54,605 bases of DNA. Origin: a virus (Duplodnaviria; Caudoviricetes). The stretch lies in IMG/VR virus record IMGVR_UViG_3300012953_000041, positions 1-54,605 of that record; one strand, given 5' to 3'. The notes beneath the pieces were generated by a model. It searched no databases and had not been told where the DNA came from. It saw nothing but the letters and a program-made list of their open reading frames with translations. This document shows positions 4,089-54,605 of the stretch, piece by piece (position 1 is the first letter of the stretch; every line of letters starts with the position of its first letter). The translations under genes were made by a program, and so were the position numbers.

Positions 4089-4117
4089 ATTATAAACTAC
4101 TCTGTTAACTTTGTCAA
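4089..4117 (-). promoter_or_regulatory. Sigma70-type promoter for gp55
   Basis: Minus strand TTGACA (4117-4112), 17-nt spacer, TATAAT (4094-4089): perfect consensus. GGAG RBS before the ATG. Confidence 0.9.
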
Positions 4118-41041: not shown

Positions 41042-41072
41042 CCTTTCCTAAACAAAGGTGCTATTATTCAAC

Positions 41073-41078
41073 TAAATA
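41073..41078 (+). promoter_or_regulatory. Late promoter TAAATA
   Basis: caacTAAATA context is identical to that at 4119. GAGG RBS downstream. Confidence 0.75.
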
Positions 41079-41097
41079 GTAATAGAGAGGTTATTTA

Positions 41098-42039
41098 ATG
41101 CCAACAGTTATATTAGCATCAAGATTTAATAATTTAAAGACTCGAGTAGATCGAGTCCTTGGACCTTGTCTTGAAACAAATAGAAACAGCGGTGATTATA
41201 CATTTGGATATGGTGAAACTCCGAGTAGCTATCTCTCGCAATCAGCAAGCAATGACCTAATTGATGCAGCGGCATATCAAGGATTATACCTTGATGTTGC
41301 TAAAGTTAAAATACATCAAGTAGGTACATCTGCATTTACACCTTTGGCTTATAAAATTGGCGATTTTGTTACAAATGCGGCAACTGCTGACAAAGTTGAA
41401 GAAGCATATATTGCAGGAATAGAATCACTAGCAACTGATATAGAAAATAATAAATTTGATTGTCATGCTACGCAGGCAGATCTATTACCATGCGACACTT
41501 CTATAACTTCTACTAACTGGAACGGAACACTTAGTCATATATTTACAGTTACATTTACTAGTGCCCAAGAAAGACGTGAATACTTTAATGCAGGCGGATT
41601 AATTAGATTTAATCCAAGCATGACATATTCAGGAAGCCAAGCAAAAACACTAGACTGGAAAAGTATGATAAACGCTATAGGAGCAGTAAACTTTGGTTGT
41701 CAGGGAACTATTGCACCTAGCGGAGTTGGACAGTCATATGGCGGCATTGGTCATGACTATATGTCCAGTGTATATCAAACAGCATACTTCAATCAGGGAG
41801 GCGGTGTATATAATCCTAACAGATATACAATATACGCAATGGAACTTAGTGATACAGTTTTACAATTTAAAGTCGAATTAACAGATCCTAGTTATGGAAA
41901 TCCAGATGAAAATGTATTAGCTTCAGTAGTAAATTTAGTTCAATTTTTTAGACCTAACGGAACAGCTATAATAAACGGAGTTAATTACACTACAGTTCAA
42001 AGATCTACACCTACATCTTCTACAATATCTGCTTTTTAA
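41098..42039 (+). CDS. Virion structural protein, paralog of the N-terminal domain of 38084-41041
   Basis: Shared A.R.NNL..R...LG, GYG, IHQVG, WNG...H.FTVTF, FNAGG.IR, K.LDW motifs. Confidence 0.75.
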   Translation: MPTVILASRFNNLKTRVDRVLGPCLETNRNSGDYTFGYGETPSSYLSQSASNDLIDAAAYQGLYLDVAKVKIHQVGTSAFTPLAYKIGDFVTNAATADKVEEAYIAGIESLATDIENNKFDCHATQADLLPCDTSITSTNWNGTLSHIFTVTFTSAQERREYFNAGGLIRFNPSMTYSGSQAKTLDWKSMINAIGAVNFGCQGTIAPSGVGQSYGGIGHDYMSSVYQTAYFNQGGGVYNPNRYTIYAMELSDTVLQFKVELTDPSYGNPDENVLASVVNLVQFFRPNGTAIINGVNYTTVQRSTPTSSTISAF

Positions 42040-42042
42040 AGG

Positions 42043-42079
42043 TTGACTACCTACTATAATAGTGCTATAATAGTAAATA
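42043..42079 (+). promoter_or_regulatory. Dual promoter: sigma70-type (TTGACT-17-TATAAT, extended -10 TG) plus late TAAATA
   Basis: TTGACT 42043-42048, TGcTATAAT ending 42071, TAAATA 42074-42079. Direct repeat CTATAATAGT at 42054 and 42065. Confidence 0.8.
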
Positions 42080-42142
42080 TGTTCAGACCTCAGCCATTTT
42101 AGTGGCCACAGCGAATATATAATATTATAGGAGGTAATTCGT

Positions 42143-42502
42143 ATGGATGAAAGATTAGAAAAAGCTTTAGAATTTTCAAACTACATGCTTACATTAAATA
42201 ACCAAAAAAGGTTATTGACGGAAAAATATCAAGAAGAACTATTATATTTCTATAATGGATGTCAGTTTACTGTTACTAAAGAATTAATTAATTTTGTAAA
42301 ATTACTTCTTGAAAGTCATCAAGATACTAATGCTGTACTAACAGATGACAATGGTATTCCTACTATTGTAGAAAATGTAGATAAATTTTATGATTCAATT
42401 ATTGATGTATATTTTGTGGCTTCAAATTCTTACCACTCAGATTACATGAAATTGAAAAAACAAAGAAGTGTGGAAAAATTAGTTGACTATGAAGAAAACT
42501 AA
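42143..42502 (+). CDS. Hypothetical helical protein, possibly a fibre assembly chaperone
   Basis: 119 aa with strong GGAGGT RBS, first gene of the coupled run. Function guessed from position after the fibre genes. Confidence 0.55.
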   Translation: MDERLEKALEFSNYMLTLNNQKRLLTEKYQEELLYFYNGCQFTVTKELINFVKLLLESHQDTNAVLTDDNGIPTIVENVDKFYDSIIDVYFVASNSYHSDYMKLKKQRSVEKLVDYEEN

Positions 42503-43346
42503 AGGTGCTTTTTTAATTGCTCGAAATAATTCTCAGGTTGACTATGTTAAGCAAGCAGTTTTTTTAGCAAAGCGTATAAGAAAATACTTAGATATACCAA
42601 CTACTGTATTGACCGATTCAGCAGAGTATATAAAATCTGACTTCGACGACAAAGTATTTGATAAGATTATTCCTTTAAAATCTAAACCACAGCAAAATCA
42701 AAGATTATATTTTGATGGCAGTATGCATCAGCGTCAAGCAACATTTAATAATAGAACTAGATCACATGCATACGATCTTAGTCCATATGATCAAACTTTA
42801 CTATTAGATACTGATTATATTATTAGTAATAGTTTACTAAAGTCTTGTTTTGATTCTCAAGACGACTTTTTAATTTATAAAGATTCAACTGATATAGCTC
42901 AAGTACGTGATGAACAAGAATTTAAGTACATAAGTGATACTAGTGTTCCTTTTTATTGGGCAACGTGTGTATTTTTTAGAAAGACTACAGTTAATAAAAT
43001 TTATTTTGATTTAGTACAGCATATTGAAAAAGAATGGGATCATTATAGGAGAGTTTATCAAATAACATCTACATTATTTAGAAATGATTTTGCATTTAGT
43101 ATTGCAATACATATAATGAACGGATTCCAAGAAGGATTATTTGCTAAACCAATGCCTGGTAAAATGATGTATACTACAGATAGAGATATCCTATGGAAAT
43201 TAGATAATGACCAGATGATGTTTTTAGTAGAAAAGAAAGATTACTTAGGTGAATATACTGCACTTAAAACTAAAGGTCAAACAATTCATGTGATGAACAA
43301 ATATAGTTTAGGAAGAATGATTGATTTAGAGGCTAACAATGACTAA
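42489..43346 (+). CDS. GT-A fold glycosyltransferase-like protein (GT8-like)
   Basis: Y..QA..LA..I, SPYDQTLLLDTD (DxD), RNDFAFSIA. ATG at 42489 preferred over the track's TTG at 42483. Confidence 0.75.
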   Translation: MKKTKGAFLIARNNSQVDYVKQAVFLAKRIRKYLDIPTTVLTDSAEYIKSDFDDKVFDKIIPLKSKPQQNQRLYFDGSMHQRQATFNNRTRSHAYDLSPYDQTLLLDTDYIISNSLLKSCFDSQDDFLIYKDSTDIAQVRDEQEFKYISDTSVPFYWATCVFFRKTTVNKIYFDLVQHIEKEWDHYRRVYQITSTLFRNDFAFSIAIHIMNGFQEGLFAKPMPGKMMYTTDRDILWKLDNDQMMFLVEKKDYLGEYTALKTKGQTIHVMNKYSLGRMIDLEANND

Positions 43347-44178
43347 AGGTATTATAGTACTAGCACAGAATCTCCAAGATGTAAGTTATGTTAAGCAAGC
43401 AGAAGTTTTAGCAATGAGCTTGAAATCTACAAATCCTAAAACTAAAATTAGTATTATAACTGATAATAAAGTTGAGTTTGAAAATCTATTCGATCAAATA
43501 ATACCTATACCATTTGGAGATTCAGCAAAAGATTCAAGTTGGAAAATTGAAAATAGATGGAAAATATATCACGCTAGTCCATATGATCAAACAATTGTAA
43601 TGGATACTGATATGTTAGTACTACAAGACATATCAGCCTGGTGGAAGTTTTTAGAAAATTATAAAATATTTTTTACTAGCAAAGTACATACTTACAGAGG
43701 AACAATAGCAGATACTAAATATTACAGAAAAACATTTCTTGCAAATAAATTACCTAATTTATTCTGCGGAGTTCATTACTTTGAGAAGTCTGAACAAGCA
43801 CAAGAATTTTATCATTGGTTAGAATTAGTTGTACAAAACTGGCAAGCTTTTTACGAAGTATTTTTAGAAGGAGTAACTAGACCTACACATGTAAGTATAG
43901 ATGTTTGTGCGTCAATCGTTGCTATGATTTTAGATTGTACAAATGATATAACTAACCCAACCGTAAGCTTTCCTAGTTTTACACATATGAAAAAGAATTG
44001 TCAAGGCTGGGTTGATGGAGCAAGTAATTGGCAAGACCGAGTTGGATTTTATATTTCAAGAGATTGTAAAGTTAAAATTGGAAATTACGATCAGTTAGGC
44101 ATATTGCATTATACTGAAAATGATTTTTTAGAAAAGTCTCCTGTAATTGAAAGGTATAGGAATTTATTAAATGTCTGA
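43339..44178 (+). CDS. GT-A fold glycosyltransferase-like protein (paralog of previous gene)
   Basis: YVKQA..LA, SPYDQTIVMDTDM (DxD), FTHMK, ILHY. Confidence 0.75.
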   Translation: MTKGIIVLAQNLQDVSYVKQAEVLAMSLKSTNPKTKISIITDNKVEFENLFDQIIPIPFGDSAKDSSWKIENRWKIYHASPYDQTIVMDTDMLVLQDISAWWKFLENYKIFFTSKVHTYRGTIADTKYYRKTFLANKLPNLFCGVHYFEKSEQAQEFYHWLELVVQNWQAFYEVFLEGVTRPTHVSIDVCASIVAMILDCTNDITNPTVSFPSFTHMKKNCQGWVDGASNWQDRVGFYISRDCKVKIGNYDQLGILHYTENDFLEKSPVIERYRNLLNV

Positions 44179-45514
44179 ATTAAATGATCTAATTAAATCA
44201 TTACAAATGGAAGTAAAGCTTTCTGAATCGACATATGTCTATTATGATAAAGAAACTGGAAGTGTACTTAGACTAAGCGGACAAGAGCAACCATTTGATG
44301 AAAATGAAGATGTACTTGCAGTCCCACATGATGTTTCTAGTCCGATACTTACAGGAGAAAAGAAAACATCAGATTATATTGTTATCTATGATATAGTATT
44401 AAAGCAAAAAGTTTTAAAAGAAAAATCGTATGAAGATGCACATAAGGAAGCATCAACAATGTGTTACCAATTGCCTATTATTAAGAATAATAGGTCAGGA
44501 CATATGGCATGTACTGAGGTATATGATGGCGTAGAAGTTTACATATGGTTTAAAGATACAGCATACAAAAAAGATCATTTAGTTTGGTATGAAGATACAG
44601 TTTATAAATTGTTAAAATCTAATCGCAAAGGACAAAATTTTAGTAAAAAGAACTCTTTGCCTTTTATCGAAGACGTACAATTAACTAATTTAGCAACACA
44701 GTCACTAGCGATAACTACATTGCAGTTTACACAAGAATACATTGGATTACATATTGATATTTGGTATAATGATTTAGAACATTTAGCAGGACAACATGTA
44801 TGGATTGGTAAATGTGTATATAGAATAATCGAAGATCAACCAAAAGGTACAGAATTTAATCCTAACAATGCAGAAATGTTAGTATCTAATGTGTTACTTT
44901 ATAAAGATAGTAACAAGAGTCTTGATACTATTACGCATATACAAGATGGTGATGTATTTTTAGAACATAATAAGATTTATAGTGCTAGTCTTGTTGAAAA
45001 AGAATATGACAAAACTTCAAATGATGTAATTTTCTACACGGATCAACATCATCTTGTAAAATGGATACATAAAAATGATACGTTATTAAGATTTGATACT
45101 ACTGACACAAAAGATTATTCTGTAACTGAGAACACTATAGAAGTAGTAGATCAAACTAAATTAAAAAATGGCAGTACTATTTTACTAGGTAAAAAATTAT
45201 ACACAGTACAGCTTGATAAAGAATATGATATTATTATTACTCAAGATAAACCATCTGAACTATGGACATTAGCTTTAAATCCAGCAACACTAAAGTTTTT
45301 ACAAATGACAAATTATGATCACGACGATGTTTTATATTTTAGTATAACTGCAAAACATGATCCAAATATTCTTTATAGAGCACTTAAAGTTTCGATGTCA
45401 GAGTTAAATAAAATACATGTTATTCCTTTTGAATTTGAAAATGAAAAAAATAAAGATGTTAGCTTGTATACAGCAAAATATTTTGATAGCTACGCACACG
45501 AGGTAATTGAATGA
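44171..45514 (+). CDS. Hypothetical protein with aromatic carbohydrate-binding-like repeats
   Basis: 447 aa. WFKDTAYKKDHLVWYEDTVYK and WYNDLEHLAGQHVWIGKCVYR resemble CBM5/12-type repeats. Confidence 0.55.
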   Translation: MSELNDLIKSLQMEVKLSESTYVYYDKETGSVLRLSGQEQPFDENEDVLAVPHDVSSPILTGEKKTSDYIVIYDIVLKQKVLKEKSYEDAHKEASTMCYQLPIIKNNRSGHMACTEVYDGVEVYIWFKDTAYKKDHLVWYEDTVYKLLKSNRKGQNFSKKNSLPFIEDVQLTNLATQSLAITTLQFTQEYIGLHIDIWYNDLEHLAGQHVWIGKCVYRIIEDQPKGTEFNPNNAEMLVSNVLLYKDSNKSLDTITHIQDGDVFLEHNKIYSASLVEKEYDKTSNDVIFYTDQHHLVKWIHKNDTLLRFDTTDTKDYSVTENTIEVVDQTKLKNGSTILLGKKLYTVQLDKEYDIIITQDKPSELWTLALNPATLKFLQMTNYDHDDVLYFSITAKHDPNILYRALKVSMSELNKIHVIPFEFENEKNKDVSLYTAKYFDSYAHEVIE

Positions 45515-46437
45515 GTAATACATTTAAAGTGACAGATTATGATATAATTTATCTAAGTTATGACGAACCAAATGCAGAAAAAAATTATGCAGATTTATGT
45601 AAAAAAGTTCCTTGGGCAAAACGTGTTCATGGAGTAGAAGGGTCAGATGCTGCACACAAAGCTTGTGCAGAATTAAGCGAAACAGATCGTTTTATTACAG
45701 TAGATGGTGATAATATAGTTGATGAAAAATTTATTAATCAAGAAATTGACTTTGACGAACACGAGGACCTACAACATAGTGTAATTAGTTGGGCAGGATA
45801 TAATGTAGTTAATGGACTTATGTACGGAAACGGTGGTCTTAAATGTTGGCCTAAAAAGTTTGTATTAGAAATGAAAACCCATGAAAATGCTGAACCGGAT
45901 AATAAGCATGCACAAGTAGATTTCTGCTGGGATATCAATTATATACAGATGAATAGTTGTTTTAGTTATGTATATAATAATCATACTCCACAACAAGCAT
46001 GGCGAGCTGGTTTTAGAGAAGGTGTTAAAATGGCACTTGATAGAGGCTTGCGTGTTACTAAAGAAGAGTTTGCACAATTACATTGGAAAAATTTACACAG
46101 ATTATATGTTTGGTTAACTGTAGGAGCAGATTCTAAAAATGGATCATGGGCTATATATGGTGCTCGAGAAGGCCTTTATAAAACTATGGCAACAGATTGG
46201 GACTTTGTAAATGTTCGTGATTTTGAATATTTAAATAACTATTGGAATGGAGTTGAACCAAAGGTGTCAATGGATGGACTAGCAGACTCTATTGAAGAGT
46301 TGGGTGGAAAATTACTAAATGAACTTGATGTCCCAATTCCTGTAATACCTTTTAGTCCTGAACAAAGTAAGTTCTTTAAAACAGTTTATCAAAATCCAGG
46401 AAGAATGCATAACCAGTTTATCGACAAAGAGCTCTAA
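45511..46437 (+). CDS. GT-A fold glycosyltransferase-like protein (GT2-like)
   Basis: IIYLSYDEP, AHKACA...ETDRFITVDGDN (DxD), YGNGG.K, AWRAGFRE. Confidence 0.7.
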   Translation: MSNTFKVTDYDIIYLSYDEPNAEKNYADLCKKVPWAKRVHGVEGSDAAHKACAELSETDRFITVDGDNIVDEKFINQEIDFDEHEDLQHSVISWAGYNVVNGLMYGNGGLKCWPKKFVLEMKTHENAEPDNKHAQVDFCWDINYIQMNSCFSYVYNNHTPQQAWRAGFREGVKMALDRGLRVTKEEFAQLHWKNLHRLYVWLTVGADSKNGSWAIYGAREGLYKTMATDWDFVNVRDFEYLNNYWNGVEPKVSMDGLADSIEELGGKLLNELDVPIPVIPFSPEQSKFFKTVYQNPGRMHNQFIDKEL

Positions 46438-46438
46438 T

Positions 46439-47842
46439 ATGAGTCAAAGTACGTATAATGCTGGTGCAGAATATGCAAGAGAAAAATTAAAAGAAATAAG
46501 TTGTTCTATGTGTTTAGCAAAATGGACACAAGTAACAATGCATTTACATAACGGGCACACTCATAGCTGTCATCATCCTGCTCCTCATTTTATTCCACTA
46601 GAAGAACTTAAAGATAATCCGCATGCGTTGCATAATACAAAGCATAAAATAGAGCAACGTAAAATGATGCTTGAAGGTAAGCAACCTAAAGAGTGTAATT
46701 ACTGTTGGAATATTGAAAATTTAAATCATGGTCATTTTAGCGATAGACATTTTAAGAGTGGTGAAGATTGGAATGAAGGACAATTTGAAAAAATTAAAGA
46801 ATCACCGTTAAGTGATAAATTTTTACCAACATATGTAGAAGTTAGTTTTAATAATACTTGTAATTTTGCATGTATGTACTGTAGTCCTCAAATTTCTAGT
46901 AAGTGGATGGAAGATATTGAAGCTAATGGAGCATACGATTTAGGAGATTATCAAGTACATCATCTTGATTATTTGCGTACCAAGAATCAAATACCAATTC
47001 CTAATAGAGAAGTAAATCCTTATATAGAAGCATTTTGGAAAATATGGCCTGAGTTGTATACCAATTTAAAAGTCTTTAGGATTACAGGTGGTGAACCTTT
47101 GCTTAGTAAACATACTTGGAAAGTTTTAAAATATATACAAGAAAATCCTAATCCTAATTTAGTATTAGGTATAAACACAAATTTAGGAGTTCAAGATGCA
47201 TTTATCGATAGATTTATACCTATTGCTAAAGACTTAATAATAAACAATAAAGTAAAAAACTTTGAATTGTATACAAGTGTTGAAGCAACAGGAGCTCAAG
47301 CAGAGTACATACGTGATGGTTTAGATTATGATCAGTTTATTAGTAATTTAAACAAAGTTACAAGAGAAATACCAATGTTAGACTGGAAGTCAAAAACAGT
47401 AATTATGGCAACATATAACTTGTTAAGTATTCCGACATTTCGTAATTTATTAGAATGGTTACTTAAATGGAGACTTGAACATGGTTCAGGCACTTGGAAA
47501 AAGCTTTGGTTAGATATAAGCTACTTAACATATCCTAATTGGCAAACTATTGCTCTTGCTGATAATGAAATGTTAAAAATAATGCAAGATGACCTTAAGT
47601 TTATGCAAGATAACAGAGAGCAAGAAATAGGACATCATGGGTTCCAAGACACTGAAGTAGCAAAAATGGCAAGAGCTGTAGATTATGTTACACAAAATTT
47701 AAATAATGATAAAACAAATGAAATGAAACAGTTTTATAATTTTTTTACTTCCTATGATATTAGACGCAACAAAAATTTTGTTCAAACATTTCCACAGTTT
47801 TCTCATTTTTACGAAAAATGCAAAGAGGTAGTACATGGATAG
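46439..47842 (+). CDS. Radical SAM enzyme with N-terminal twitch/SPASM-like Cys motif
   Basis: CNFACMYC (CxxxCxxC), ITGGEPL, NTN. N-terminal CLAKW...SCHH...ECNYCW. Confidence 0.92.
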   Translation: MSQSTYNAGAEYAREKLKEISCSMCLAKWTQVTMHLHNGHTHSCHHPAPHFIPLEELKDNPHALHNTKHKIEQRKMMLEGKQPKECNYCWNIENLNHGHFSDRHFKSGEDWNEGQFEKIKESPLSDKFLPTYVEVSFNNTCNFACMYCSPQISSKWMEDIEANGAYDLGDYQVHHLDYLRTKNQIPIPNREVNPYIEAFWKIWPELYTNLKVFRITGGEPLLSKHTWKVLKYIQENPNPNLVLGINTNLGVQDAFIDRFIPIAKDLIINNKVKNFELYTSVEATGAQAEYIRDGLDYDQFISNLNKVTREIPMLDWKSKTVIMATYNLLSIPTFRNLLEWLLKWRLEHGSGTWKKLWLDISYLTYPNWQTIALADNEMLKIMQDDLKFMQDNREQEIGHHGFQDTEVAKMARAVDYVTQNLNNDKTNEMKQFYNFFTSYDIRRNKNFVQTFPQFSHFYEKCKEVVHG

Positions 47843-49103
47843 GGTGAACGTTTGGGAAAGATCAGACTTAACTGATGACAGATGGCGAAAATGTGATGGA
47901 AGAGCATCATACGCATTTCAAAATGGATTTAAAAAAGAATTCTTAGGATTATTTCCTGAGCATTCTGATGCATTTATTCCTCTTGGATTGACTACTAAAA
48001 AAGCTTATAAGGTTTATAATCCTGTTAGTAGCTTAAAAGCAATTAAGAAACAGAAATATTATTATCCTATTCCTTGGGTACCAGCGCCTGATTCAAAACA
48101 CTCATTACAAGAAGTTATAGAAATTGATCAAGTACATTTAGATAATTTAAAATCTAATAGATGTAAATTATTAGTTATTAATGTAATGGAAGGATGGAAT
48201 CATGATGGACATTTTCAAATATTAATCGATGCAATCAAAGAAAAATATAATTTACAGTATGATAATTTTGTGCTTTTATCTGGCAATTTAGACGAAACGC
48301 CATACGGTGTTCCAACAGTATATTACAACTGGTGGGAACAGCATATGAATGATCATGGATTACTAGAGTATGCCAAACATGGATTTAATAGTACAGATAC
48401 TGTTACTCGTCCTAATAGATTTTTGTGTCTAAATCGTAGACCTCATGGTCATCGTATATTACTAACTAATGCATTAGAACAGTATAAAGATCTTGGCATT
48501 TTAACTTGTGCTAAAGAAACTGATTTTGGTTCTTTGCATTTATTTAGAAAAGCATTACACCACGTAATACCAGAACATTATCCTAAGCTTAAAGAAGAAC
48601 TTCATGAAACTAATAATTTTCCAAATTTTTTAAATAGATTGCCTTTCACTTATGACGATGGTTATAATGCCGCAGACGATAATCCAACAGTTGATGAATC
48701 TAGAGATAAGTTTTATAATAGTTGGTTGCACGTTGTGACAGAAACATATCAGACAAACGGGCAAACATTTTTTAGTGAAAAAATATTTAAACCTATGATA
48801 TATTGGCAACCATTTATTTTAGTTGGCGCACAACACGACTTAAAAAGTTTAAGGTCTTTTGGTTATAAAACATTTGACGGAATAATAGATGAGACTTATG
48901 ATACTATTGAAAATAATGAAGAAAGACTAAAAGCAACCATTAAAGAAATAGAGCGTATTATTAAATTATCAGATGAAGATATAGCAAAATTATATAAAGA
49001 ATGCTACGAAGTATTGACACATAACTTCTTCCACTGGGTTTATAGAAATCAAACTATACACATAGGATTAAAAAATGATTTGCTGGAGAAATTAAGTGGC
49101 TAA
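47835..49103 (+). CDS. Putative GT-B glycosyltransferase (GT10-like C-terminal domain)
   Basis: FLCLNRR...HR, VVTET, FFSEKIFKP....PFILVG, L.SFGYKTF...IDETYD. Confidence 0.6.
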   Translation: MDRVNVWERSDLTDDRWRKCDGRASYAFQNGFKKEFLGLFPEHSDAFIPLGLTTKKAYKVYNPVSSLKAIKKQKYYYPIPWVPAPDSKHSLQEVIEIDQVHLDNLKSNRCKLLVINVMEGWNHDGHFQILIDAIKEKYNLQYDNFVLLSGNLDETPYGVPTVYYNWWEQHMNDHGLLEYAKHGFNSTDTVTRPNRFLCLNRRPHGHRILLTNALEQYKDLGILTCAKETDFGSLHLFRKALHHVIPEHYPKLKEELHETNNFPNFLNRLPFTYDDGYNAADDNPTVDESRDKFYNSWLHVVTETYQTNGQTFFSEKIFKPMIYWQPFILVGAQHDLKSLRSFGYKTFDGIIDETYDTIENNEERLKATIKEIERIIKLSDEDIAKLYKECYEVLTHNFFHWVYRNQTIHIGLKNDLLEKLSG

Positions 49104-49743
49104 ACTATTTGCATACGGATGTAGTTATACTTACGGCCACGGACTACAAGATTGTATTATTGGAAAAGTTGAACCCGGGCATGCACCAAGCAAGTTAGGG
49201 TATGCATCAATACTAGGACAGAAATTAAATTTTAGTGAAGTAATAAATCATAGTAGGCCTGGTACAAGTAATAAATGGATAACTCATGCTATCAATATAA
49301 CAGCTGAACATATTTCAAAAGATGATGCAGTTATTATACAATGGTCTTTTATAGATAGAACAACTATATTAAGAAAAGGTAGTCACCGAAATCTAAACAA
49401 GTACGATGCTTTAGGTACATGGATGGCCGGACAAAAAGGTACGCTGTCATCAGTTTATTATAAGCACTTATATGACCATGTTGATCATTTACAAGTTACT
49501 TCTTGGTATATAAAATATGTTGATTTATTATTAAAAAGTTATGGAATTACAAAAATTTTACATACATCTCCTCCAGAAGAAAATCAACTATCTGAATTAA
49601 TACCTGATAGTATAACTTGGTGGGAAGAAAATTTATCAAAGTATAGGGTTGATACGGCACAAGATAACAGTCATCCAGGTCCTCAATCTCAAGAATTGTT
49701 TGCTAATAGAATAGTAGAAGTATATGGTGATTATTTAAAGTGA
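49096..49743 (+). CDS. SGNH/GDSL-fold protein (O-acetyltransferase or esterase)
   Basis: GCSYTYG (block I), PGTSN, QWS..DR, DNSHPG (DxxH). GTG start. Confidence 0.75.
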   Translation: MAKLFAYGCSYTYGHGLQDCIIGKVEPGHAPSKLGYASILGQKLNFSEVINHSRPGTSNKWITHAINITAEHISKDDAVIIQWSFIDRTTILRKGSHRNLNKYDALGTWMAGQKGTLSSVYYKHLYDHVDHLQVTSWYIKYVDLLLKSYGITKILHTSPPEENQLSELIPDSITWWEENLSKYRVDTAQDNSHPGPQSQELFANRIVEVYGDYLK

Positions 49744-51176
49744 AAAAGATTACTGAAATAGATCCGCAGACAGCTGCACAGCAGGTAATACCTATGTTGG
49801 ATGAAATCTCACCTACAATGTGCATGGCTAAATGGCTGTGGAGCAGTATACACTTAACTAACGGATTAACTAATAGTTGTTTTCTCCCACCTTTGCATAA
49901 AATTGACCCCGAAGCTGTTAAAAAGAACCCACGTGCATTACATAATACACCTGAGAAAAAACAACAACGTGCTATGATGCTTGAAGGTAAGCAACCAGAT
50001 GGTTGCAGTAGTTGTTGGAAAGTAGAAGCACAAGGAAAACAACTTAGTGACAGAGCATATCGTAGTTCAGAACCATGGGCACAGCAGGGCTGGGAAGACG
50101 TAATATCAACAGGTGCTAATGGCGATATTGATCCTACATATTTAGAAGTAAACTTTAACCATGCTTGCAACTTAGCGTGTAGTTATTGTAGCCCCCATCT
50201 AAGTAGTAAGTGGGCAGAAGATATTAAAGAGCACGGACCTTATCCTACAACAGTACCACATAATAGTATTGAATATTTTAAAAGTATTGGACACTATCCA
50301 ATTCCTAACAGAGAAGAAAATCCTTATGTTGAGGCATTTTGGAAATGGTGGCCTGACTTATATCCTAAGCTAAAGCATTTTAGAATGACAGGAGGTGAGC
50401 CACTAATGGATAAAAATACATTTCGTGTACTTGACTATGTGCTAGACAACCCAAGGGATGATCTTAATATAAGCATAACAACCAATGCTAGTGTTCCACA
50501 AAAAAACTGGAATAGATTTGTAGACACTGTTAGCTTTATAGACGAATATAAGAAATTAGAAAGTTTTAGATTATATGTTAGTGTTGATGGATGGGGAGAA
50601 CAAGCAGAATATATGCGTGATCCATTAGATTTTAATCTACTATGGAATAACGTAAACAACTATCTTACTAGAACCAAAGACGGGCTAGTTACGTTTATTG
50701 TAACATTAAATATGTTAAGTATGCCAAGTATTAAGCGTTTAATGCAAGGTATATTAGAACTACAGCGTGTGCATAATGTAAAAAAGACAAGACGTGACGA
50801 TAATGGAAAGCTAACATTTTATGGAAATCATAGGGTATTTGTAGATACACCGGCATTACATTATCCAGCGTGGCAAAGTTTGAAAGTACTACCAAAAGAG
50901 TTTTGGCATTACGGAGATGAGTGTTTAGAGTTTATGAAAGCCAACATAGATAAACATAGAGAAAGTCGTTGGGTAGGATTCAAACCACATCAAATACAAA
51001 GATTTGAAAGAAGCTTAGATTTTATGAAGCAAGGATTTACATCAGATAAAGAAAAACAAGAAGCCCAAGAAAATTTTGTTAAGTTTTTTGAAGAATATGA
51101 TCAAAGACGAGGCTTAGACTTTCATAAAGTGTTTCCTGAACTTAGTCCTTACTTTAACAAATGGAAGGTTAAGTAA
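49740..51176 (+). CDS. Radical SAM enzyme with N-terminal twitch/SPASM-like Cys motif (paralog)
   Basis: CNLACSYC, MTGGEPL, TTN, SVDG. N-terminal CMAKW...SCF...GCSSCW. Confidence 0.92.
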   Translation: MKKITEIDPQTAAQQVIPMLDEISPTMCMAKWLWSSIHLTNGLTNSCFLPPLHKIDPEAVKKNPRALHNTPEKKQQRAMMLEGKQPDGCSSCWKVEAQGKQLSDRAYRSSEPWAQQGWEDVISTGANGDIDPTYLEVNFNHACNLACSYCSPHLSSKWAEDIKEHGPYPTTVPHNSIEYFKSIGHYPIPNREENPYVEAFWKWWPDLYPKLKHFRMTGGEPLMDKNTFRVLDYVLDNPRDDLNISITTNASVPQKNWNRFVDTVSFIDEYKKLESFRLYVSVDGWGEQAEYMRDPLDFNLLWNNVNNYLTRTKDGLVTFIVTLNMLSMPSIKRLMQGILELQRVHNVKKTRRDDNGKLTFYGNHRVFVDTPALHYPAWQSLKVLPKEFWHYGDECLEFMKANIDKHRESRWVGFKPHQIQRFERSLDFMKQGFTSDKEKQEAQENFVKFFEEYDQRRGLDFHKVFPELSPYFNKWKVK

Positions 51177-52471
51177 TGAGATACTCACATCATCATAATT
51201 TATTAGATCAACATAACATACTAAATCCTAATAATACAGGGTTATATAGTAACTATCCATTAGGTCCTAGTTGGTTTCCGTTAAGAGAAAAAACTAACTT
51301 ACAAAAGGGCTGGGACAATATGTTCCTTCAGTTAGGTAAAACATTTTTAAAAGGAGTATCAAATCCGTATGCAGTATATATGGGGGTAGGAAAAATAGAT
51401 TATCTTGAAATGCCAAGTACTATATTAGACACAAAACCAAAAAATAGAATGAACAAAAAAGGTCTAAAAATTTATCTACTAGAACCATTAAGTACATACC
51501 ATGTAAATGATGATCCTGATAAAGGACCTTTATATACTAATTATGAAATAGATGATATAGAAAATGTTAGAGCAAAAGAATTAGATAGTATATCAAAATT
51601 TGTTGAAAGAAATGGACTAACAAATGTAAGTGTATATACTCCTGATTATAAAGTTAATGAATACTTCGGATTAACATATCCAGATCTTAAATTATTTTGC
51701 TCTCCAATAGGCTGGTGTTATCCTGCAACAATGGATCTTAATATTGAAATACCACCGTCTAAAGATATAGTAAAAAAATTCTGGTGCGGCAATTGGAAAT
51801 ATGCACCTCATAGGCATTTGATTGCAAGTTACCTTGCTGGAAACTTTGATAGTTCGGATTATCATTTAAGTTGGATTTATAGTTCAAGTCAAAGTATTTT
51901 AAGAAATAATGTTTGGTTTGATATAACAAATCTACCAAACTATGACAGTATACTTGAAGGTGCTCAAAAATTAGATCTAATTGCGCCAAGTACTATGGGA
52001 ATAGAGCTAACTGATGCATTAGACATTAATGATCCTGCTCCAGACCTGCATATAAACACAAACCCTGTAGAATATTATAATGAATCTTTTTGTGCTATTG
52101 TAAATGAAACAAGATTTGCACAAGCTACTGGCATACTCACAGAAAAAATAATGAATCCTATGATTAATTGTAAGCCATTTATAATGGTAGGACCTCCTGG
52201 TAATTTAGAATATATGCGTAAGTGGGGATTTCAAACATTTAGTGATTATTGGGATGAAAGCTATGATATTGAAGAATGTCACCATAAGCGTCTAGCAAAA
52301 ATATTTGAATTAATTAATTGGCTCGGTAATATGAGTATTGAAGAACTTAGAGAATTATATGAAAAGATGTTGCCAACAGTTATGTTTAACCAAGTACACA
52401 TACTTGATTTGCAAGAAAAATTATTACAAGAACCGATAACAAAGAACATACTATTTAAGAGGCTAGGATGA
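51176..52471 (+). CDS. Putative GT-B glycosyltransferase (paralog of 47835-49103)
   Basis: KFWCGN....HR, IVNET, LTEKIMNP....PFIMVG, GFQTF..YWDESYD. Confidence 0.6.
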   Translation: MRYSHHHNLLDQHNILNPNNTGLYSNYPLGPSWFPLREKTNLQKGWDNMFLQLGKTFLKGVSNPYAVYMGVGKIDYLEMPSTILDTKPKNRMNKKGLKIYLLEPLSTYHVNDDPDKGPLYTNYEIDDIENVRAKELDSISKFVERNGLTNVSVYTPDYKVNEYFGLTYPDLKLFCSPIGWCYPATMDLNIEIPPSKDIVKKFWCGNWKYAPHRHLIASYLAGNFDSSDYHLSWIYSSSQSILRNNVWFDITNLPNYDSILEGAQKLDLIAPSTMGIELTDALDINDPAPDLHINTNPVEYYNESFCAIVNETRFAQATGILTEKIMNPMINCKPFIMVGPPGNLEYMRKWGFQTFSDYWDESYDIEECHHKRLAKIFELINWLGNMSIEELRELYEKMLPTVMFNQVHILDLQEKLLQEPITKNILFKRLG

Positions 52472-53064
52472 TTATAAAAAATGAAAAGCCGTTAAAAATT
52501 ATTGGCTATCCAGAAAGCACACTTACTCAAGAAAGTTTGTTTTACGGAAAAAACTTTGTTATTGAAGATACTAGCTTAATGACCCCGCAAGAGTTTAAGC
52601 AGTTAGATAACAAAGATGACTTTCAGTACTTTATAGGCTTTGCACTAGACTTAAAAGAACGTGAGCAGACTATTGACTTGTTAGACGAGTATGATAGTGA
52701 TTGTGTAACGTATGTACATGATAGTGCTATTGTGTTTGAAGGAGCAACAATTGGGAAAGGATCATGTGTAGCCAACTTTAGTTCTCTAATGGCAGGAGCA
52801 AAAGTAGGCAATCATTGTTTTATTGAAACATACTGTCTAGTAAGCCATCAAACTACTGTTGGTAATAATTGTATGCTACACAGCGGCACAATGCTAGCGG
52901 GTAAAACTACAATAGGTAAAAATTGTATGTTTAATTTTAAAAGTGCAGCTATTAATAATATTGAAATTTGTGATAATGTTACTCTTGGTGCGTTTAGTAG
53001 TGCAACAAAAAGTATTACAAAAGAAGGTGTGTATGTAGGAACACCTGCAAGGTTTTTAAGATGA
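52468..53064 (+). CDS. Hexapeptide-repeat sugar acetyltransferase (NeuD/PglD-like)
   Basis: YVHDSA...GATIGKG, VGNHC, VSH (candidate catalytic His), IGKNC, GVYVGTPAR. Confidence 0.88.
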   Translation: MIIKNEKPLKIIGYPESTLTQESLFYGKNFVIEDTSLMTPQEFKQLDNKDDFQYFIGFALDLKEREQTIDLLDEYDSDCVTYVHDSAIVFEGATIGKGSCVANFSSLMAGAKVGNHCFIETYCLVSHQTTVGNNCMLHSGTMLAGKTTIGKNCMFNFKSAAINNIEICDNVTLGAFSSATKSITKEGVYVGTPARFLR

Positions 53065-53822
53065 ATAGATATTTAATTACAAGTGGATGTAGTTTTAGTG
53101 AAACACATTCTACACACTTTGAAAGTTGGCCAGAGCATTTATTAAAACTTCTACCCAAATATTCTCTTATATCAAAAGGATTAGCAAGCCAAGGAAATGG
53201 TTTAATTAGTAGAGGCATTATTTACGAAGTTTCCAAAAAACTAAAAGATGGTGTTCCGGCAAAAGATATCTTAGTTGGAGTACAGTGGTCGGGTCCTGAT
53301 AGAATGGATTTTTTGTTTGACGATCCACAATATGCTAAACATAAATTAGCTAGAGATGCCGGAATGTTTGACAAAAATGAATATACTAATTGGGATGGTT
53401 GGATGGAGAACCCAACTGGATTTATTGAAGATGACAAAAATTGGGTTATAGCAAGCCTTGGTTGGAAGCTAGGACGTAGGTATTTTGAGCTCTGGCACTC
53501 AAGAGATCAAGGTTCAATTTATACGCTAGAACATATTTTAAGGGTACAATGGTTTTTAGAAAAACATAATATAAAATATTTTATGACTACAATGAATTCT
53601 AAAGTATTAGATAAAAATTCTTCTTTAAGAATCTCTCATTTATATGATCAAATAGATTTTTCAAGATTTTTACCAATTGACGGTATGCTAGAGTTTTCTC
53701 GAGAGCGAGAAACAGATGATGCACCGATGCATCCTGATAAAGTACATCCTGGACCAAAGCATTATGAAATGCTTGTAGAAGAAATAATTTTACCTTTTTT
53801 AGAGAAGAAAAATGAGCTTTGA
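53061..53822 (+). CDS. SGNH/GDSL-fold protein (paralog of 49096-49743)
   Basis: GCSFSE, SWP, SQGN, QWSGPDR, DKVHPG. Confidence 0.75.
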   Translation: MNRYLITSGCSFSETHSTHFESWPEHLLKLLPKYSLISKGLASQGNGLISRGIIYEVSKKLKDGVPAKDILVGVQWSGPDRMDFLFDDPQYAKHKLARDAGMFDKNEYTNWDGWMENPTGFIEDDKNWVIASLGWKLGRRYFELWHSRDQGSIYTLEHILRVQWFLEKHNIKYFMTTMNSKVLDKNSSLRISHLYDQIDFSRFLPIDGMLEFSRERETDDAPMHPDKVHPGPKHYEMLVEEIILPFLEKKNEL

Positions 53823-54411
53823 TACAGTAAAAGAGTTTGAACAACAAATTGCAAAATTTTATGGTGCGCCTTATGCAGTAGCAACAGATTGTTGCACACA
53901 TGCAATTGAATTATGTTTAAGAGTAGAACCAGTATCAGCGATGACCTGTCCAACTAATACGTATCCGAGTGTTCCTATGACACTAGATAAATTAGGAATA
54001 CGTTGGTTTTGGGGTGAAGAAAATTGGGAGGATTATTATTATCTCGGAAATACTCGTATAATCGATGCCGCAGTTTATTGGAAAGCAAATAGCTATTTGT
54101 CAGGCACATTGATGTGTTTAAGTTTTCAGTTTCAAAAACATCTTAGTCTAGGCAGAGGCGGTGCCATACTATGTGATGACAAGCTTACTTATGATGTGTT
54201 AAAACGTATGAGCTACGATGGCCGTAATCCAAATACTCCTTGGAAAGAACAAGATATAAAGGACATAGGTTATCATTATTATATGACACCCGAAACTGCT
54301 CAACTAGGCTTAGATCGCCTTCCTGATGCAGAGGTAAAGAAACCAAAGAAATGGACATCTCAAGACTATCCTGATCTCAGGAACATGACTGTGTTTAAAA
54401 AACATAGATAA
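53812..54411 (+). CDS. DegT/DnrJ/EryC1/StrS family PLP aminotransferase, unusually short
   Basis: FE..IA.F.GA.YAVA...CT.AI.L.L, IIDAA, SFQFQKHL..G.GGAI, G..Y.M. Confidence 0.85.
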   Translation: MSFDTVKEFEQQIAKFYGAPYAVATDCCTHAIELCLRVEPVSAMTCPTNTYPSVPMTLDKLGIRWFWGEENWEDYYYLGNTRIIDAAVYWKANSYLSGTLMCLSFQFQKHLSLGRGGAILCDDKLTYDVLKRMSYDGRNPNTPWKEQDIKDIGYHYYMTPETAQLGLDRLPDAEVKKPKKWTSQDYPDLRNMTVFKKHR

Positions 54412-54414
54412 TTA
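54409..54414 (+). promoter_or_regulatory. Putative late promoter variant TAATTA
   Basis: gaTAATTA overlapping the stop codon. GAGGAG RBS at 54433-54438. Confidence 0.4.
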
Positions 54415-54445
54415 TATATGTACATAATAAAAGAGGAGTTCGCCT

Positions 54446-54605
54446 TTGAAGATAGGATTTATTGGCACAGGCAAGTTAGGAACGCCGTGTGCAGAAGCAA
54501 TTGCTGACAAAGGACATGATGTCAGAGGCTACGATGTAATCAATCATCAAAGCAAAACTGTTTTAATGTGCAGCGACATTTATACTTGTGTACACGATAG
54601 AGATA
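54446..54605 (+). CDS. NDP-sugar dehydrogenase (UDP-glucose/GDP-mannose dehydrogenase-like), 5' part; absent from ORF track
   Basis: TTG start after GAGGAG. Translates MKIGFIGTGKLGTPCAEAIADKGHDVRGYDV, a Rossmann GxGxxG followed by GHDV.GYD. Confidence 0.75.
   Translation, partial: MKIGFIGTGKLGTPCAEAIADKGHDVRGYDVINHQSKTVLMCSDIYTCVHDRD

Follow-up and report, generated by a model that had tools for sequence, protein, structure and literature searches.

Evidence for a soluble glycan-building and tailoring island beside the fibre genes of a marine jumbo phage

Directly 3' of the tail-collar, fibre and Gly-rich genes of an uncultured marine phage lies an operon for which a soluble, phage-borne glycan-building and tailoring pathway is well supported. 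The window, the whole 54,605-nt stretch of DNA analysed, is a fragment of a PA5oct/Atu_ph07-like jumbo myovirus that looks lytic, since it carries genes for a gp55-like (T4-like) late sigma factor and for a recombination nuclease. Positions 42143-54605 of the plus strand hold 13 complete ORFs (42143 to 54411) and one cut 5' fragment from 54446. Nearly all overlap, with junctions in chain order of -20, -8, -8, -4, +1, -8, -8, -4, -1, -4, -4, -11 and +34 nt. A first-pass annotation had described at least 14 same-strand, mostly overlapping genes directly after the fibre genes, and this arrangement holds, with baseplate and fibre genes upstream. We tentatively favour, at somewhat under an even chance, a lipid-carrier-free glycan island whose acceptor is most likely one of the structural proteins in the neighbouring fibre/baseplate module. 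The 5' flank and core comprise the following features.

41098..42039, plus strand: fibre-module protein directly 5' of the operon, a candidate acceptor
42043..42071, plus strand: sigma-70-type promoter preceding the operon (TTGACT, 17 nt, TG-extended TATAAT)
42074..42079, plus strand: TAAATA hexamer, 69 nt before the ATG of 42143
42143..42502, plus strand: core gene 1, 119-aa protein (homologue in Ralstonia phage RsoM2USA, gene 354)
42483..43346, plus strand: core gene 2, retaining GT-A glycosyltransferase with a GT8-like fold (AF2 pLDDT 91.1)
43339..44178, plus strand: core gene 3, paralogue of 42483 and putative GT-A transferase by homology (BLASTP)
44171..45514, plus strand: core gene 4, expanded, with conserved N- and C-terminal parts and a CBM5/12-like repeat insert (family HMM)
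45511..46437, plus strand: core gene 5, GT-A (GT2-like) transferase whose C-terminal half is helical and specific to the family (AF2 pLDDT 86.6)
46439..47842, plus strand: core gene 6, radical SAM enzyme of the N-terminal-twitch family (NF033640, 311.9 bits)

The predicted fold of 42483 aligned with glycogenin over 211 residues (Z 15.5) and also matched UGGT, LARGE1, LgtC and GlyE, with Skp1 galactosyltransferase among its other best structural neighbours and WbbM among its GT8-fold neighbours. D109-x-D111 is invariant in this protein, and searches of Pfam returned no GT family for it. Its neighbour 43339 shares 33% identity with it over 110 aa by BLASTP (E 2e-11), DTD motif included. The predicted fold of 45511 is GT2-like over residues 2-194, with an invariant D65-G-D67; VIA-align matched it to B4GALNT1 (Z 10.4), STIV A197 (9.7) and ThuS (9.6) and Foldseek to PBCV-1 A64R (E 8.6e-4), and its structural neighbours include the peptide S-glycosyltransferases SunS and ThuS. 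Relatives of 45511 are encoded on at least 600 IMG/VR stretches. The three GT-A transferases proposed earlier are thus borne out, two by predicted fold and 43339 by paralogy. For the glycan reading, GT-A folds with invariant DxD motifs stand together with a dehydrogenase, an acyltransferase and a DegT homologue.

Two other core proteins, 42143 (119 aa) and 44171 (447 aa), had been left out of the earlier gene account. Family searches including Pfam gave no family above threshold for 42143, which was found in all 68 loci with enough upstream DNA. In 44171 (Atlas lead score 0.83), about 240 aa of CBM5/12-like repeats are inserted between the conserved terminal parts. The family HMM matched 64 ORFs, spread over 62 of 81 loci; 43 of these ORFs are short (<260 aa) and cover just profile positions ~1-105 and 340-446. 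Weak CBM_5_12 matches were seen for five of 13 members (best E 0.0028).

Synteny ties this core to the fibre module. The six genes lie 3' of fibre genes in 68/68 loci, the full set from relatives whose sequence extends far enough, and a 41098-like gene lies upstream in 59 of 60, so the linkage on which the earlier proposal was staked is found in relatives. The 41098 protein is homologous to the N-terminal part of the Gly-rich protein 38084. Homologues of 45511 in relatives are 57-87% identical, and a single contig from an independent marine run bridges 39165-46091. Among 50,697 phage records the sole match for the core was RsoM2USA, which has the same gene order as the window; PMC8504454 reports its genes 361, 359 and 356, just upstream, as detected in virions by mass spectrometry. 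A full-text literature search found no description of the module, which is widespread in related phages and uncharacterised.

Cargo 3' of the core varies between lineages, like an O-antigen locus. Across 80 related loci it includes NAD-dependent epimerase/4,6-dehydratases, further UDPG/GDP-Man dehydrogenases and DUF6071 proteins, FkbM and other methyltransferases, a 2OG oxygenase, B12- and SPASM-type radical SAM enzymes and an NTP-transferase/kinase fusion. In the window the cargo is as follows.

47835..49103, plus strand: 422-aa protein of a large uncharacterised family, possibly a GT10-like transferase (Atlas)
49096..49743, plus strand: SGNH-like (DUF6071-related) hydrolase or acyl-esterase (hhalign)
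49740..51176, plus strand: second N-terminal-twitch radical SAM enzyme (NF033640, 352.7 bits)
51176..52471, plus strand: paralogue of 47835 with a common C-terminal 110 aa (BLASTP 33% identity, E 5e-16)
52468..53064, plus strand: left-handed beta-helix (hexapeptide) acyl/acetyltransferase, NeuD/PglB/VioB-like (Pfam Hexapep, 70.2 bits)
53061..53822, plus strand: DUF6071 protein, SGNH-like (PF19547, 29.6 bits against a cut-off of 27)
53812..54411, plus strand: half-length DegT/DnrJ/EryC1 homologue (PF01041, 58 bits in two stretches)
54446..54605, plus strand: 5' part of a gene of the UDP-glucose/GDP-mannose dehydrogenase family, truncated where the contig stops (homology to relative G001)

Several of these assignments agree with the first-pass annotation. 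The hexapeptide acetyltransferase is confirmed by Pfam; it scored 114.1 bits against TIGR03570, under the cut-off of 160.8, and also scores against LpxD and LpxA models. Both SGNH proteins stand: 53061 exceeds the DUF6071 threshold, its family in relatives carries the canonical GDS motif and one member weakly matches Lipase_GDSL_2, while 49096, with invariant GCS and DxxHPG motifs, is homologous to a DUF6071-type alignment (hhalign 98.6%, E 5.5e-16). The NDP-sugar dehydrogenase is likewise supported, the 53-aa fragment being 94% identical (50/53) to the N terminus of a 407-aa protein in G001, the nearest relative; that protein has the UDPG_MGDP_dh domains PF03721, PF00984 and PF03720. The DegT claim survives as homology, but the protein, 199 aa long where the profile has 360 positions, lacks roughly half of the fold. 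Its Lys108 lines up with the PLP lysine motif seen in solved DegT enzymes and open frames of 198-212 aa are kept in the 3/3 relatives searched; the protein may not be an aminotransferase.

The two GT-B-like transferases proposed earlier, 47835 and 51176, found no such backing, since neither has a Pfam match or a PDB sequence match. The 47835 family has 12,986 representatives at E<=0.001. No glycosyltransferase family appeared among 42 scanned representatives or 15 alignment members; five of the 42 had sub-threshold matches (Ferritin, JMY, CTD1, UPF0231, DUF6971) and 37 had none. GT10 is the nearest named Atlas cluster (0.79), with an hhalign probability of 5.6% against the GT10 profile. R207, E303-T304 and E315-K316 are invariant in both the 47835 and 51176 groups, which are possibly GT10-like transferases.

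Both radical SAM enzymes are confirmed by Pfam matches and by NF033640 scores well over its cut-off of 170 bits. The core enzyme 46439 has CxxxCxxC at residue 141, four more conserved N-terminal Cys and 42% identity to RsoM2USA gene 349. Its paralogue 49740 is 39% identical to it over the full length and had more than 7,181 relatives among 8,000 scored candidates. This analysis found no characterised member of the family, which makes "sugar tailoring" an argument by analogy. Peptide maturases commonly carry SPASM and twitch domains, and it is conceivable, if very unlikely, that the pathway is not primarily a glycan pathway: the radical SAM paralogues would lead, modifying a peptide or protein, such as the small core proteins or fibre proteins, or making a small molecule, with auxiliary transferases. 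In favour of this, the paralogues dominate the islands (155 members in 69 loci; at least one in 69/71 loci, at least two in 47/71, up to five within 10 kb), and family searches assigned no function to the two small core proteins. In Bdellovibrionota chromosomes N-twitch radical SAM genes occur as tandem arrays of 3-5 members: two of six loci scanned have a neighbouring GT2 or GT1 gene, a point for the glycan reading, and the other four have no glycosyltransferase gene among the neighbours scanned. Against it, the three GT-A genes are conserved equally with the radical SAM gene (68/68), nucleotide-sugar enzymes abound in the cargo, and no precursor-peptide-like gene, peptidase or exporter family was found in the window or 57 island cluster representatives.

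The operon is switched on by a different type of promoter from that of the fibre genes. In a scan of 40900-54605, the promoter at 42043..42071 was the top match (11/12), and 43 of 55 distinct relatives keep a sigma-70-like TTGAC-N16-18-TAnnnT ahead of the operon's first gene. This pattern was absent upstream of fibre-gene homologues (0/42 for 36596, 0/15 for 32008); instead TAAATA marks the fibre genes (42/42), and in the window lies 25 nt before the ATG of 41098. The late TAAATA promoter invoked earlier is present as a hexamer at 42074, but TAAATA occurs within 60 nt upstream of the operon in only 6/55 distinct relatives and was not found there in the closest, L004 and L005. The late-promoter claim is contradicted, and co-regulation with late genes is not supported. 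A promoter of the sigma-70 type is also found before the gene for the phage's late sigma factor, as well as before its SbcD-like gene, so the operon is probably expressed pre-late. Adjacency to fibre genes is the sole link to a virion acceptor, and an operon outside the fibre promoter class fits host- or DNA-directed functions at least as well.

One such function, possible but doubtful, is remodelling of the host envelope. The soluble transferases would act at the cytoplasmic face on host surface proteins or lipid-linked glycans (LPS core or LOS, capsule or glycolipid precursors), exported by host machinery. This would alter the receptor of the neighbouring fibres, giving superinfection exclusion or preventing progeny adsorption to debris. 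Besides the pre-late promoter, O-antigen-like cargo variation and LpxD/LpxA scores of 52468, it draws on the LPS/LOS enzymes LgtC and WbbM among the GT8-fold neighbours, which count against a virion acceptor. The operon of the nearest relative, moreover, runs on into a membrane enzyme of the fatty-acid-desaturase family that has three TM-like segments, a hint that the target may be lipid-linked. By the crude Kyte-Doolittle test no 19-residue segment of any window ORF reached 1.6 (maximum 1.43), in line with the earlier claim of no membrane helix, and 13 of 518 island proteins of relatives did. Bacterial GT8 core-LPS transferases are themselves soluble and without membrane helices, so this lack is compatible with a host target and not decisive. 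Weighing the other way, no flippase, Wzy, GtrA/B or polyprenyl-phosphate transferase was found in the window or the 57 cluster representatives, nor any polymerase family among the latter. Fibre linkage holds in very diverse relatives and a Ralstonia phage, whose hosts' envelopes presumably differ, and this phage looks lytic, whereas known seroconversion systems belong to temperate phages.

A second such function is DNA hypermodification, for which a pre-late promoter class would be expected; the enzymes are also all predicted to be soluble. Clusters for thymidine hypermodification include radical SAM, PLP-dependent and acetyl-transfer enzymes, and T-even phages, with glucose on DNA bases, provide a model in which modified sugars on phage DNA would evade restriction. 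Diverse glycans on phage DNA are reported in a paper cited in PMC12619734, and RsoM2USA has a second, divergent thymidylate-synthase-family gene (85 bits). We nevertheless regard this as unlikely: in 59/60 loci the module is embedded in the fibre module rather than grouped with genes for replication or nucleotides, the core includes a protein with CBM5/12-like repeats, and the 4,6-dehydratase, FkbM and UDP-sugar dehydrogenase cargo is typical of protein or polysaccharide glycans. G004, a CheckV-complete 383-kb relative that carries the module, lacks any ThyA-family gene, a point against reliance on hydroxymethyl bases; another relative, G005, has only one, typical ThyA (338 bits).

We infer virion proteins as the acceptor, with the host envelope and DNA still in contention. 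Glycogenin, UGGT, GlyE and Skp1 galactosyltransferase, fold neighbours of 42483, glycosylate proteins in the cytoplasm or ER, and those of 45511 include the capsid glycosyltransferase A64R of PBCV-1 and STIV A197. Of the earlier proposal that a cytoplasmic pathway builds and edits a tail glycan, the soluble enzyme set and fibre linkage remain, and late co-regulation does not. The part in the window would be the first 12.5 kb of a longer island, its core a 119-aa protein, two GT8-like GT-A enzymes, a small protein with repeats inserted here, a GT2-like GT-A enzyme and a radical SAM enzyme. Host RNA polymerase with sigma-70 would transcribe the operon ahead of the late genes, and the GT-A enzymes, drawing on host nucleotide sugars, would assemble a short glycan on a soluble cytoplasmic acceptor. 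Radical SAM enzymes may afterwards alter the sugars at C-H or C-OH positions, through BtrN-like oxidation, epimerisation or related chemistry, and the dehydrogenase, DegT-like protein, acyltransferase and esterases would add or trim acidic, amino and acyl groups. With a structural protein of the adjacent fibre/baseplate module as the most likely acceptor, the outcome would be a variable sugar coat on virions.

The baseplate-wedge protein encoded at 12601-16203 shares 34-36% identity with its counterparts in the jumbo myoviruses Atu_ph07, Phosso, SCTP-2 and the PA5oct group, and this likeness, together with a T4-like gene content, indicates that the phage is a distant T4 relative with a large genome. 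CheckV places the completeness of the IMG/VR virus record, the 54.6-kb window, at about 15%, and its sequence recurs (at least 0.90 of sampled words) in 18 runs from 9 marine/aquatic metagenome studies. Upstream of the operon lie gp53-, gp5/VgrG-, gp25- and gp10-like baseplate genes, followed by genes for tail-collar, fibre and glycine-rich proteins. The gp5/VgrG-like spike protein (9629-12091, + strand) ends in a VgrG3-like domain (PF21277, 114.7 bits) and weakly resembles GH46 chitosanases, and may be a cell-wall-degrading tip. A single ORF of 5,261 aa (16203-31988, + strand) separates the baseplate-wedge gene from the fibre genes. The fibre-module protein at 38084-41041 (+ strand) carries a glycine-rich C-terminal domain (phrog_4474, E 1e-58) that raises local GC to 0.447 from about 0.33 elsewhere, and its middle appeared by eye to be rich in N-x-S/T triplets.

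The first-pass annotation described a same-strand chain of overlapping or abutting genes after the fibre genes, and this architecture was borne out: 13 complete plus-strand ORFs, named here by their start coordinates, and the first 53 codons of a fourteenth run from 42143 to the window end, and 12 of the 13 junctions are an overlap or a 1-nt gap. The operon has the same GC content (0.29-0.33) as the rest of the phage. Terminator-like hairpins were not above shuffle expectation (6 versus 4.6). Weak evidence of operon expression comes from two RNA libraries, whose contigs align over 42822-43283, with 1 and 5 differences, and over 43821-44496, with 1-9; these are assembled contigs in which DNA carry-over is possible and which give neither transcript starts nor timing, and no meaning attaches to stretches that lack RNA cover. 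Within the operon, Pfam alone recognises two radical SAM domains, a hexapeptide transferase, DUF6071 and DegT. In agreement with the earlier claim that no membrane helix is encoded, a simple hydropathy scan, a crude method that also stood in for signal-peptide calls, found no membrane-like segment in the window proteins (maximum 19-residue hydropathy 1.43). Strongly hydrophobic segments are present in 13 of 518 island proteins of relatives and absent from the other 505, and no Pfam match to an integral membrane flippase, transferase or acetylase family of gtrABC/oac type was found in the window or among 57 cluster representatives from the relatives' islands.

Three of the encoded proteins were originally proposed to be GT-A transferases, a count that holds, with 42483 and 45511 assigned by predicted fold and invariant DxD motifs and 43339 by paralogy with 42483. 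Structures were predicted for two proteins, 42483 and 45511, from alignments of related loci. The structure nearest to the 42483 model (pLDDT 91.1) is glycogenin-1 (Z 15.5, rmsd 3.7, 211 residues aligned), and its other neighbours include the UGGT catalytic domain, LARGE1, LgtC and GlyE; the structure search returned 735 of 999 chains at Z≥8, led by GT8, GT24 and GT6 enzymes. D109 and D111, which make up a DxD metal/nucleotide-sugar binding motif, are invariant in the 34 sequences of the 42483 alignment. Because neither Glyco_transf_8 nor any other Pfam GT model matched any of these 34 family members at E≤1, we file 42483 as a predicted retaining GT-A enzyme that is GT8-like by fold only. Its paralogue 43339, in which a DTD motif is also present, would be of the same type.

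The hub transferase, 45511, is predicted to consist of a GT2-like GT-A domain (residues 2-194) followed by a family-specific helical half (model pLDDT 86.6). Residues 2-194 match B4GALNT1 (Z 10.4, 138 residues aligned, rmsd 3.0), with further fold matches to STIV A197 (Z 9.7), ThuS (Z 9.6), SunS and WrtF; the model also matches PBCV-1 A64R (Foldseek E 8.6e-4) and, weakly, a Che8 glycosyltransferase (E 7.5e-3). IspD and MobA, nucleotidyltransferases of the same fold, match at Z 9.0-9.4. The DxD motif (D65 and D67, invariant in 41 aligned sequences) and a match list dominated by glycosyltransferases argue that 45511 is a transferase and not a nucleotidyltransferase. Pfam detects neither the 45511 nor the 42483 transferase, and a profile search for PDB sequence relatives yielded chance-level candidates that were discarded (an ammonium transporter at E 0.054 for 45511; E 0.95 for 42483). 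A 45511-like domain also lies inside two uncharacterised proteins of uncultured Caudovirales, of 804 and 1,076 aa (BFVD; 25% identity, E ~1e-15), so that the hub transferase also occurs as part of larger fusion proteins.

The other named enzymes of the operon include two radical SAM proteins, 46439 and 49740, and this assignment is secure: both are members of NCBIfam NF033640 ('twitch domain-containing radical SAM protein'), with scores of 311.9 and 352.7 bits where the cut-off is 170, and both keep CxxxCxxC and an auxiliary Cys cluster. A 22-member alignment contains seven invariant cysteines, C28, C47, C89 and C92 before the core and C143, C147 and C150 of CxxxCxxC. The family, which we call N-twitch, has more than 7,000 relatives. 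A phmmer search of PDB with 49740 gave no match at E≤1, and the literature searches turned up no NF033640-type enzyme whose reaction is known. The radical SAM core and an auxiliary Cys-rich cluster domain are shared with BtrN (an aminocyclitol dehydrogenase), MoaA and anSME, from which the window enzymes differ in carrying the auxiliary domain N-terminally, with four conserved cysteines ahead of CxxxCxxC. The pairing of a DegT-family protein with radical SAM enzymes resembles BtrN/BtrS of butirosin synthesis, and we propose by analogy that the N-twitch enzymes may carry out BtrN-like oxidation or epimerisation of sugar positions.

N-twitch genes are native to predatory Bdellovibrionota, where they were seen at five chromosomal loci (L093, L097, L101, L142 and L144), often in tandem arrays of 3-5 paralogues; one cultured Bdellovibrio sp. 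has three GT2 genes interspersed among them. Across 74 loci, one copy is present in 43, two in 12 and three or more in 19. Such paralogue arrays, which in Bdellovibrionota chromosomes often occur without transferases, would suit a function centred on radical SAM chemistry and unconnected with glycans; we consider this improbable and rank it last among the readings weighed here. The complete phage module is present on contigs in Neomarinimicrobiota, Haliscomenobacter, Legionellales and Fischerella MAGs (L089, L091, L095, L096, L104 and L113); L095, L096, L104 and L113 also have a fibre-module gene, and two of the six contigs measure 153 and 335 kb. They seem to be jumbo-phage sequence that was binned with bacterial MAGs, and a bacterial host context for these radical SAM matches was rejected because the contigs carry the phage module.

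Two small core genes, which the first-pass annotation had left undescribed, accompany the transferases and 46439. No family was detectable for 42143 (119 aa), and 44171 is a core protein conserved in a short form (43 short ORFs in 43 loci), which here, at 447 aa, contains about 240 inserted residues of weakly CBM5/12-like repeats. The remaining genes are accessory cargo. Two of them, 47835 and 51176, earlier labelled GT-B-like, are paralogues over their last 110 residues, and the 47835 family comprises 12,986 representatives at E≤0.001. Among 42 scanned representatives none matched a Pfam GT family, five having sub-threshold non-GT matches and 37 none; the alignment members scanned likewise gave no Pfam GT family at E≤10, and the 47835 profile had no match among PDB sequences. 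The nearest named protein-atlas cluster to 47835 is GT10 (score 0.79), which is a lead only; when 14 GT10 proteins taken from Bdellovibrionota genomes were compared with the family by hhalign, the probability was 5.6% (E 0.0068), with SEK aligned over the GT10 TEK motif. A GT-B or GT10 identity of the pair is therefore no more than putative.

For three further cargo products the earlier assignments needed qualification. The two proteins annotated as SGNH, 49096 and 53061, have homologous families (hhalign 98.6%) and carry G-x-S and D-x-x-H-P motifs: the 49096 group keeps GCS and DxxHPG in every member, and the canonical GDS motif occurs in two relatives. Furthermore, 53061 passes DUF6071 (29.6 against a cut-off of 27), which we take to belong to the SGNH clan. 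Lipase_GDSL_2 matched in one relative only and below its cut-off (22.1 versus 32.9 bits). We describe the pair as SGNH-like; the one PDB match of 53061 (phmmer) was a chance match and was dismissed. The proposed DegT aminotransferase, 53812, is homologous to DegT and keeps the Lys motif, but at 199 aa it has half the expected length and matches the DegT profile in two separated stretches (positions ~24-112 and 163-238 of 360). The same short length is conserved in three relatives, and 53812 is a DegT homologue that does not have the full ~360-residue fold-type-I PLP domain, with aminotransferase activity not assured. The predicted acetyltransferase, 52468, matches the hexapeptide family (Pfam Hexapep, 70.2 bits against 27) and scores below the cut-off of the NeuD/PglB/VioB subfamily model TIGR03570 (114.1 versus 160.8 bits). 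The putative NDP-sugar dehydrogenase is represented by the 53-aa fragment 54446 at the contig end, which shares 94% identity with a UDP-glucose/GDP-mannose-dehydrogenase-family protein that is complete in the nearest relative and matches PF03721 and PF00984 above their cut-offs and PF03720 below (22.1 versus 30).

Because the corresponding operon of this nearest relative (G001; L086 10019-19999) runs at least 10 kb past the point where the window ends, the window shows only part of the island. The extension contains the dehydrogenase, three more radical SAM genes, a GNAT gene, unknown genes and a gene for a membrane fatty-acid-desaturase-family protein with three hydrophobic segments.

At the nucleotide level, megablast found no match to the 12.5-kb region among 50,697 phage records. 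When 45511, 42483 and the radical SAM enzyme 49740 were searched against the same records, Ralstonia phage RsoM2USA was the only match apart from two Vibrio phages, which matched distantly (26% identity) and to the radical SAM enzyme only. Locus comparison showed that RsoM2USA has five core genes in the same order (genes 354, 353, 352, 350 and 349); a homologue of 44171 was not detected in RsoM2USA, where gene 351 occupies its position. These genes follow others whose products were found in virions, and the available text of the paper on that phage leaves genes 349-354 unannotated and reports nothing on glycosylation or modification of its DNA (PMC8504454). At 7739-8398 (- strand), RsoM2USA also has a second, divergent thymidylate-synthase-family gene (85 bits) beside a typical one (242 bits), and the divergent copy could encode a hydroxymethylase.

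In IMG/VR, at least 600 stretches encode a 45511 relative. Synteny was counted in 80 kept loci, which for IMG/VR are fragments that include near-duplicates, duplicates being removed only for promoter counts. Genes like 42143, 42483 and 43339 precede 45511 in all 68 loci with enough upstream DNA. Linkage of the cluster to structural genes in relatives, set beforehand as a test of the virion-glycosylation proposal, held: upstream of the core stands a gene like 41098, a fibre-module gene, in 59 of 60 loci, and one like the fibre gene 36596 in 53 of 60. Downstream, at least one N-twitch radical SAM gene is present in 69 of 71 loci and two or more in 47 of 71. The window's non-core genes are cargo found in only 1-18 of the 80 loci (1-10 for the dehydrogenase, DegT and hexapeptide transferase). 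Islands of relatives encode NAD-dependent epimerase/4,6-dehydratase, FkbM and other methyltransferases, a 2OG oxygenase, B12- and SPASM-type radical SAM enzymes, an NTP-transferase/kinase fusion and more DUF6071 proteins.

The presence of three DxD GT-A enzymes, of nucleotide-sugar oxidation/dehydration, of acyl transfer or removal and, in relatives, of methylation, with no flippase, polymerase or polyprenyl-phosphate transferase, makes it probable that the operon encodes enzymes that assemble and modify a glycan with no lipid carrier involved. Before the operon lies the region's best sigma-70-type promoter (TTGACT, 17 nt, TG-TATAAT; 42043-42071), and a TAAATA hexamer is present at 42074. The first-pass annotation had placed the operon behind this late motif; the hexamer is there, but it is kept within 60 nt upstream of the operon in only 6 of 55 relatives, whereas 43 of the 55 distinct upstream regions have the sigma-70-type pattern ahead of the operon's first gene. 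Upstream of the fibre genes the picture is reversed, with TAAATA in 42 of 42 regions for 36596 and 15 of 15 for 32008 and the sigma-70 pattern in none, and by this comparison the operon is not a T4-type late transcription unit. Sigma-70-like promoters also occur at 4117 and 3204, before the first two genes of a leftward group:

3208-4059, - strand, gp55-like late sigma factor (phrog_12791, E 1.2e-78)
2134-3147, - strand, SbcD-like nuclease
365-2137, - strand, Rad50/SbcC-like ATPase

Since the gp55-like and SbcD-like genes must act before or independently of late transcription, and the operon shares their promoter type, we conclude from these motifs that it probably belongs to a pre-late promoter class, which by analogy with T4 would mean early expression. 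The T4 late-promoter octamer TATAAATA does not occur in the whole window, against 12.9 occurrences expected from shuffles. At structural genes 4144, 12107, 12601, 32008, 36596 and 41098, TAAATA is found 10-33 nt upstream of the ATG, and it also precedes RsoM2USA structural genes 360-356 and 346; the late motif of the lineage seems to be nTAAATA.

Remodelling of the host envelope, a possible if rather doubtful role, is favoured by the pre-late promoter, by the LgtC/WbbM-like fold and by the desaturase encoded where the operon extends further; if the acceptor were lipid-linked and faced the cytoplasm, soluble transferases would be enough. Glycosylation of DNA fits the promoter class but not the location of the genes, and we regard it as unlikely. 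We rank virion proteins, those of fibre and baseplate, first as candidate acceptor, while holding this assignment tentatively. It is suggested by the unvarying position of the core within the fibre module, both among very divergent phages and in a soil phage that infects another host, by the protein-directed activity of many of the closest GT8, GT24 and GT2 structures, by the CBM-like core protein and by one complete relative that has the module without a thymidylate-synthase-family gene.

By function, the closest known systems are those of virus-encoded virion glycosylation in PBCV-1, mimivirus and mycobacteriophages; by parts, they are bacterial acetamido-sugar pathways. Like the glycosylation of the PBCV-1 capsid (A64R), the mimivirus fibril and the mycobacteriophage capsid and tail tube, the module combines virus-encoded soluble GT-A and tailoring enzymes and has no lipid carrier. 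In contrast to those systems, the glycan product of the module is putative, and its proteins are 10-18% identical to their enzymes. To our knowledge, none of the three contains an N-twitch radical SAM enzyme. With the Wbp, Pgl and Pse/Leg pathways (dehydrogenase/dehydratase, DegT aminotransferase and NeuD/PglD acetyltransferase) the window shares an adjacent UDPG/GDP-Man-type dehydrogenase, DegT homologue and NeuD/PglB/VioB-like hexapeptide transferase, but its DegT protein is of half length, its acetyltransferase falls below the subfamily cut-off and the trio is cargo, not core. The gtrABC/oac seroconversion systems are, similarly, phage-borne glycan modifications able to alter a receptor; they rely on integral membrane proteins, whereas none is predicted in the window.

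Among marine T4-related phages, the 'LPS' and 'antibiotic synthesis' clusters of T4-like cyanophages also have adjoining DegT-family and radical SAM genes of unknown role, as in the AHBA_syn/DegT, amidinotransferase and radical SAM neighbourhood of S-SCSM2R annotated 'antibiotic synthesis' (PMC12801897). The likeness is by description only, and the accessible text of that paper does not include the six-gene core, fibre linkage or promoter. Mycobacteriophage virion glycans have been described, and core glycosyltransferases were noted in large aquatic phages with their target left unresolved, in the text available to us (PMC12619734). Full-text literature searches found no description of the six-gene module. 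The module differs from known systems in its own six-gene core, its N-twitch radical SAM enzymes, its fixed place beside fibre genes and its separate promoter class; it is real, widespread and uncharacterised, and its virion-directed function is putative.

We know of few systems of phage-encoded virion glycosylation, and of none with radical SAM chemistry. A more specific and decidedly speculative reading, to which we attach low confidence, is that the core is undescribed virion-decorating machinery, in which soluble GT-A enzymes would place a glycan on fibre or baseplate proteins in the cytoplasm and a dedicated N-twitch radical SAM family, expanded in phages to as many as five or more paralogues in an island, would edit the attached sugars. 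If so, swappable cargo would provide every lineage with a 'glyco-serotype' of its own that might adjust adsorption or protect the virion, and a first function would be gained for NF033640 and for the 12,986-cluster family of 47835. The module holds large uncharacterised families in the N-twitch radical SAM enzymes, the 47835 family, for which Pfam has no model, and the 45511 and 42483 transferases, and the contrast in promoter class between operon and fibre genes yields a testable prediction of timing. The identity of the acceptor would tell whether marine jumbo phages sugar-coat their adsorption apparatus, re-paint the host surface or modify DNA, and would give a first substrate for a radical SAM family that they share with predatory Bdellovibrionota.
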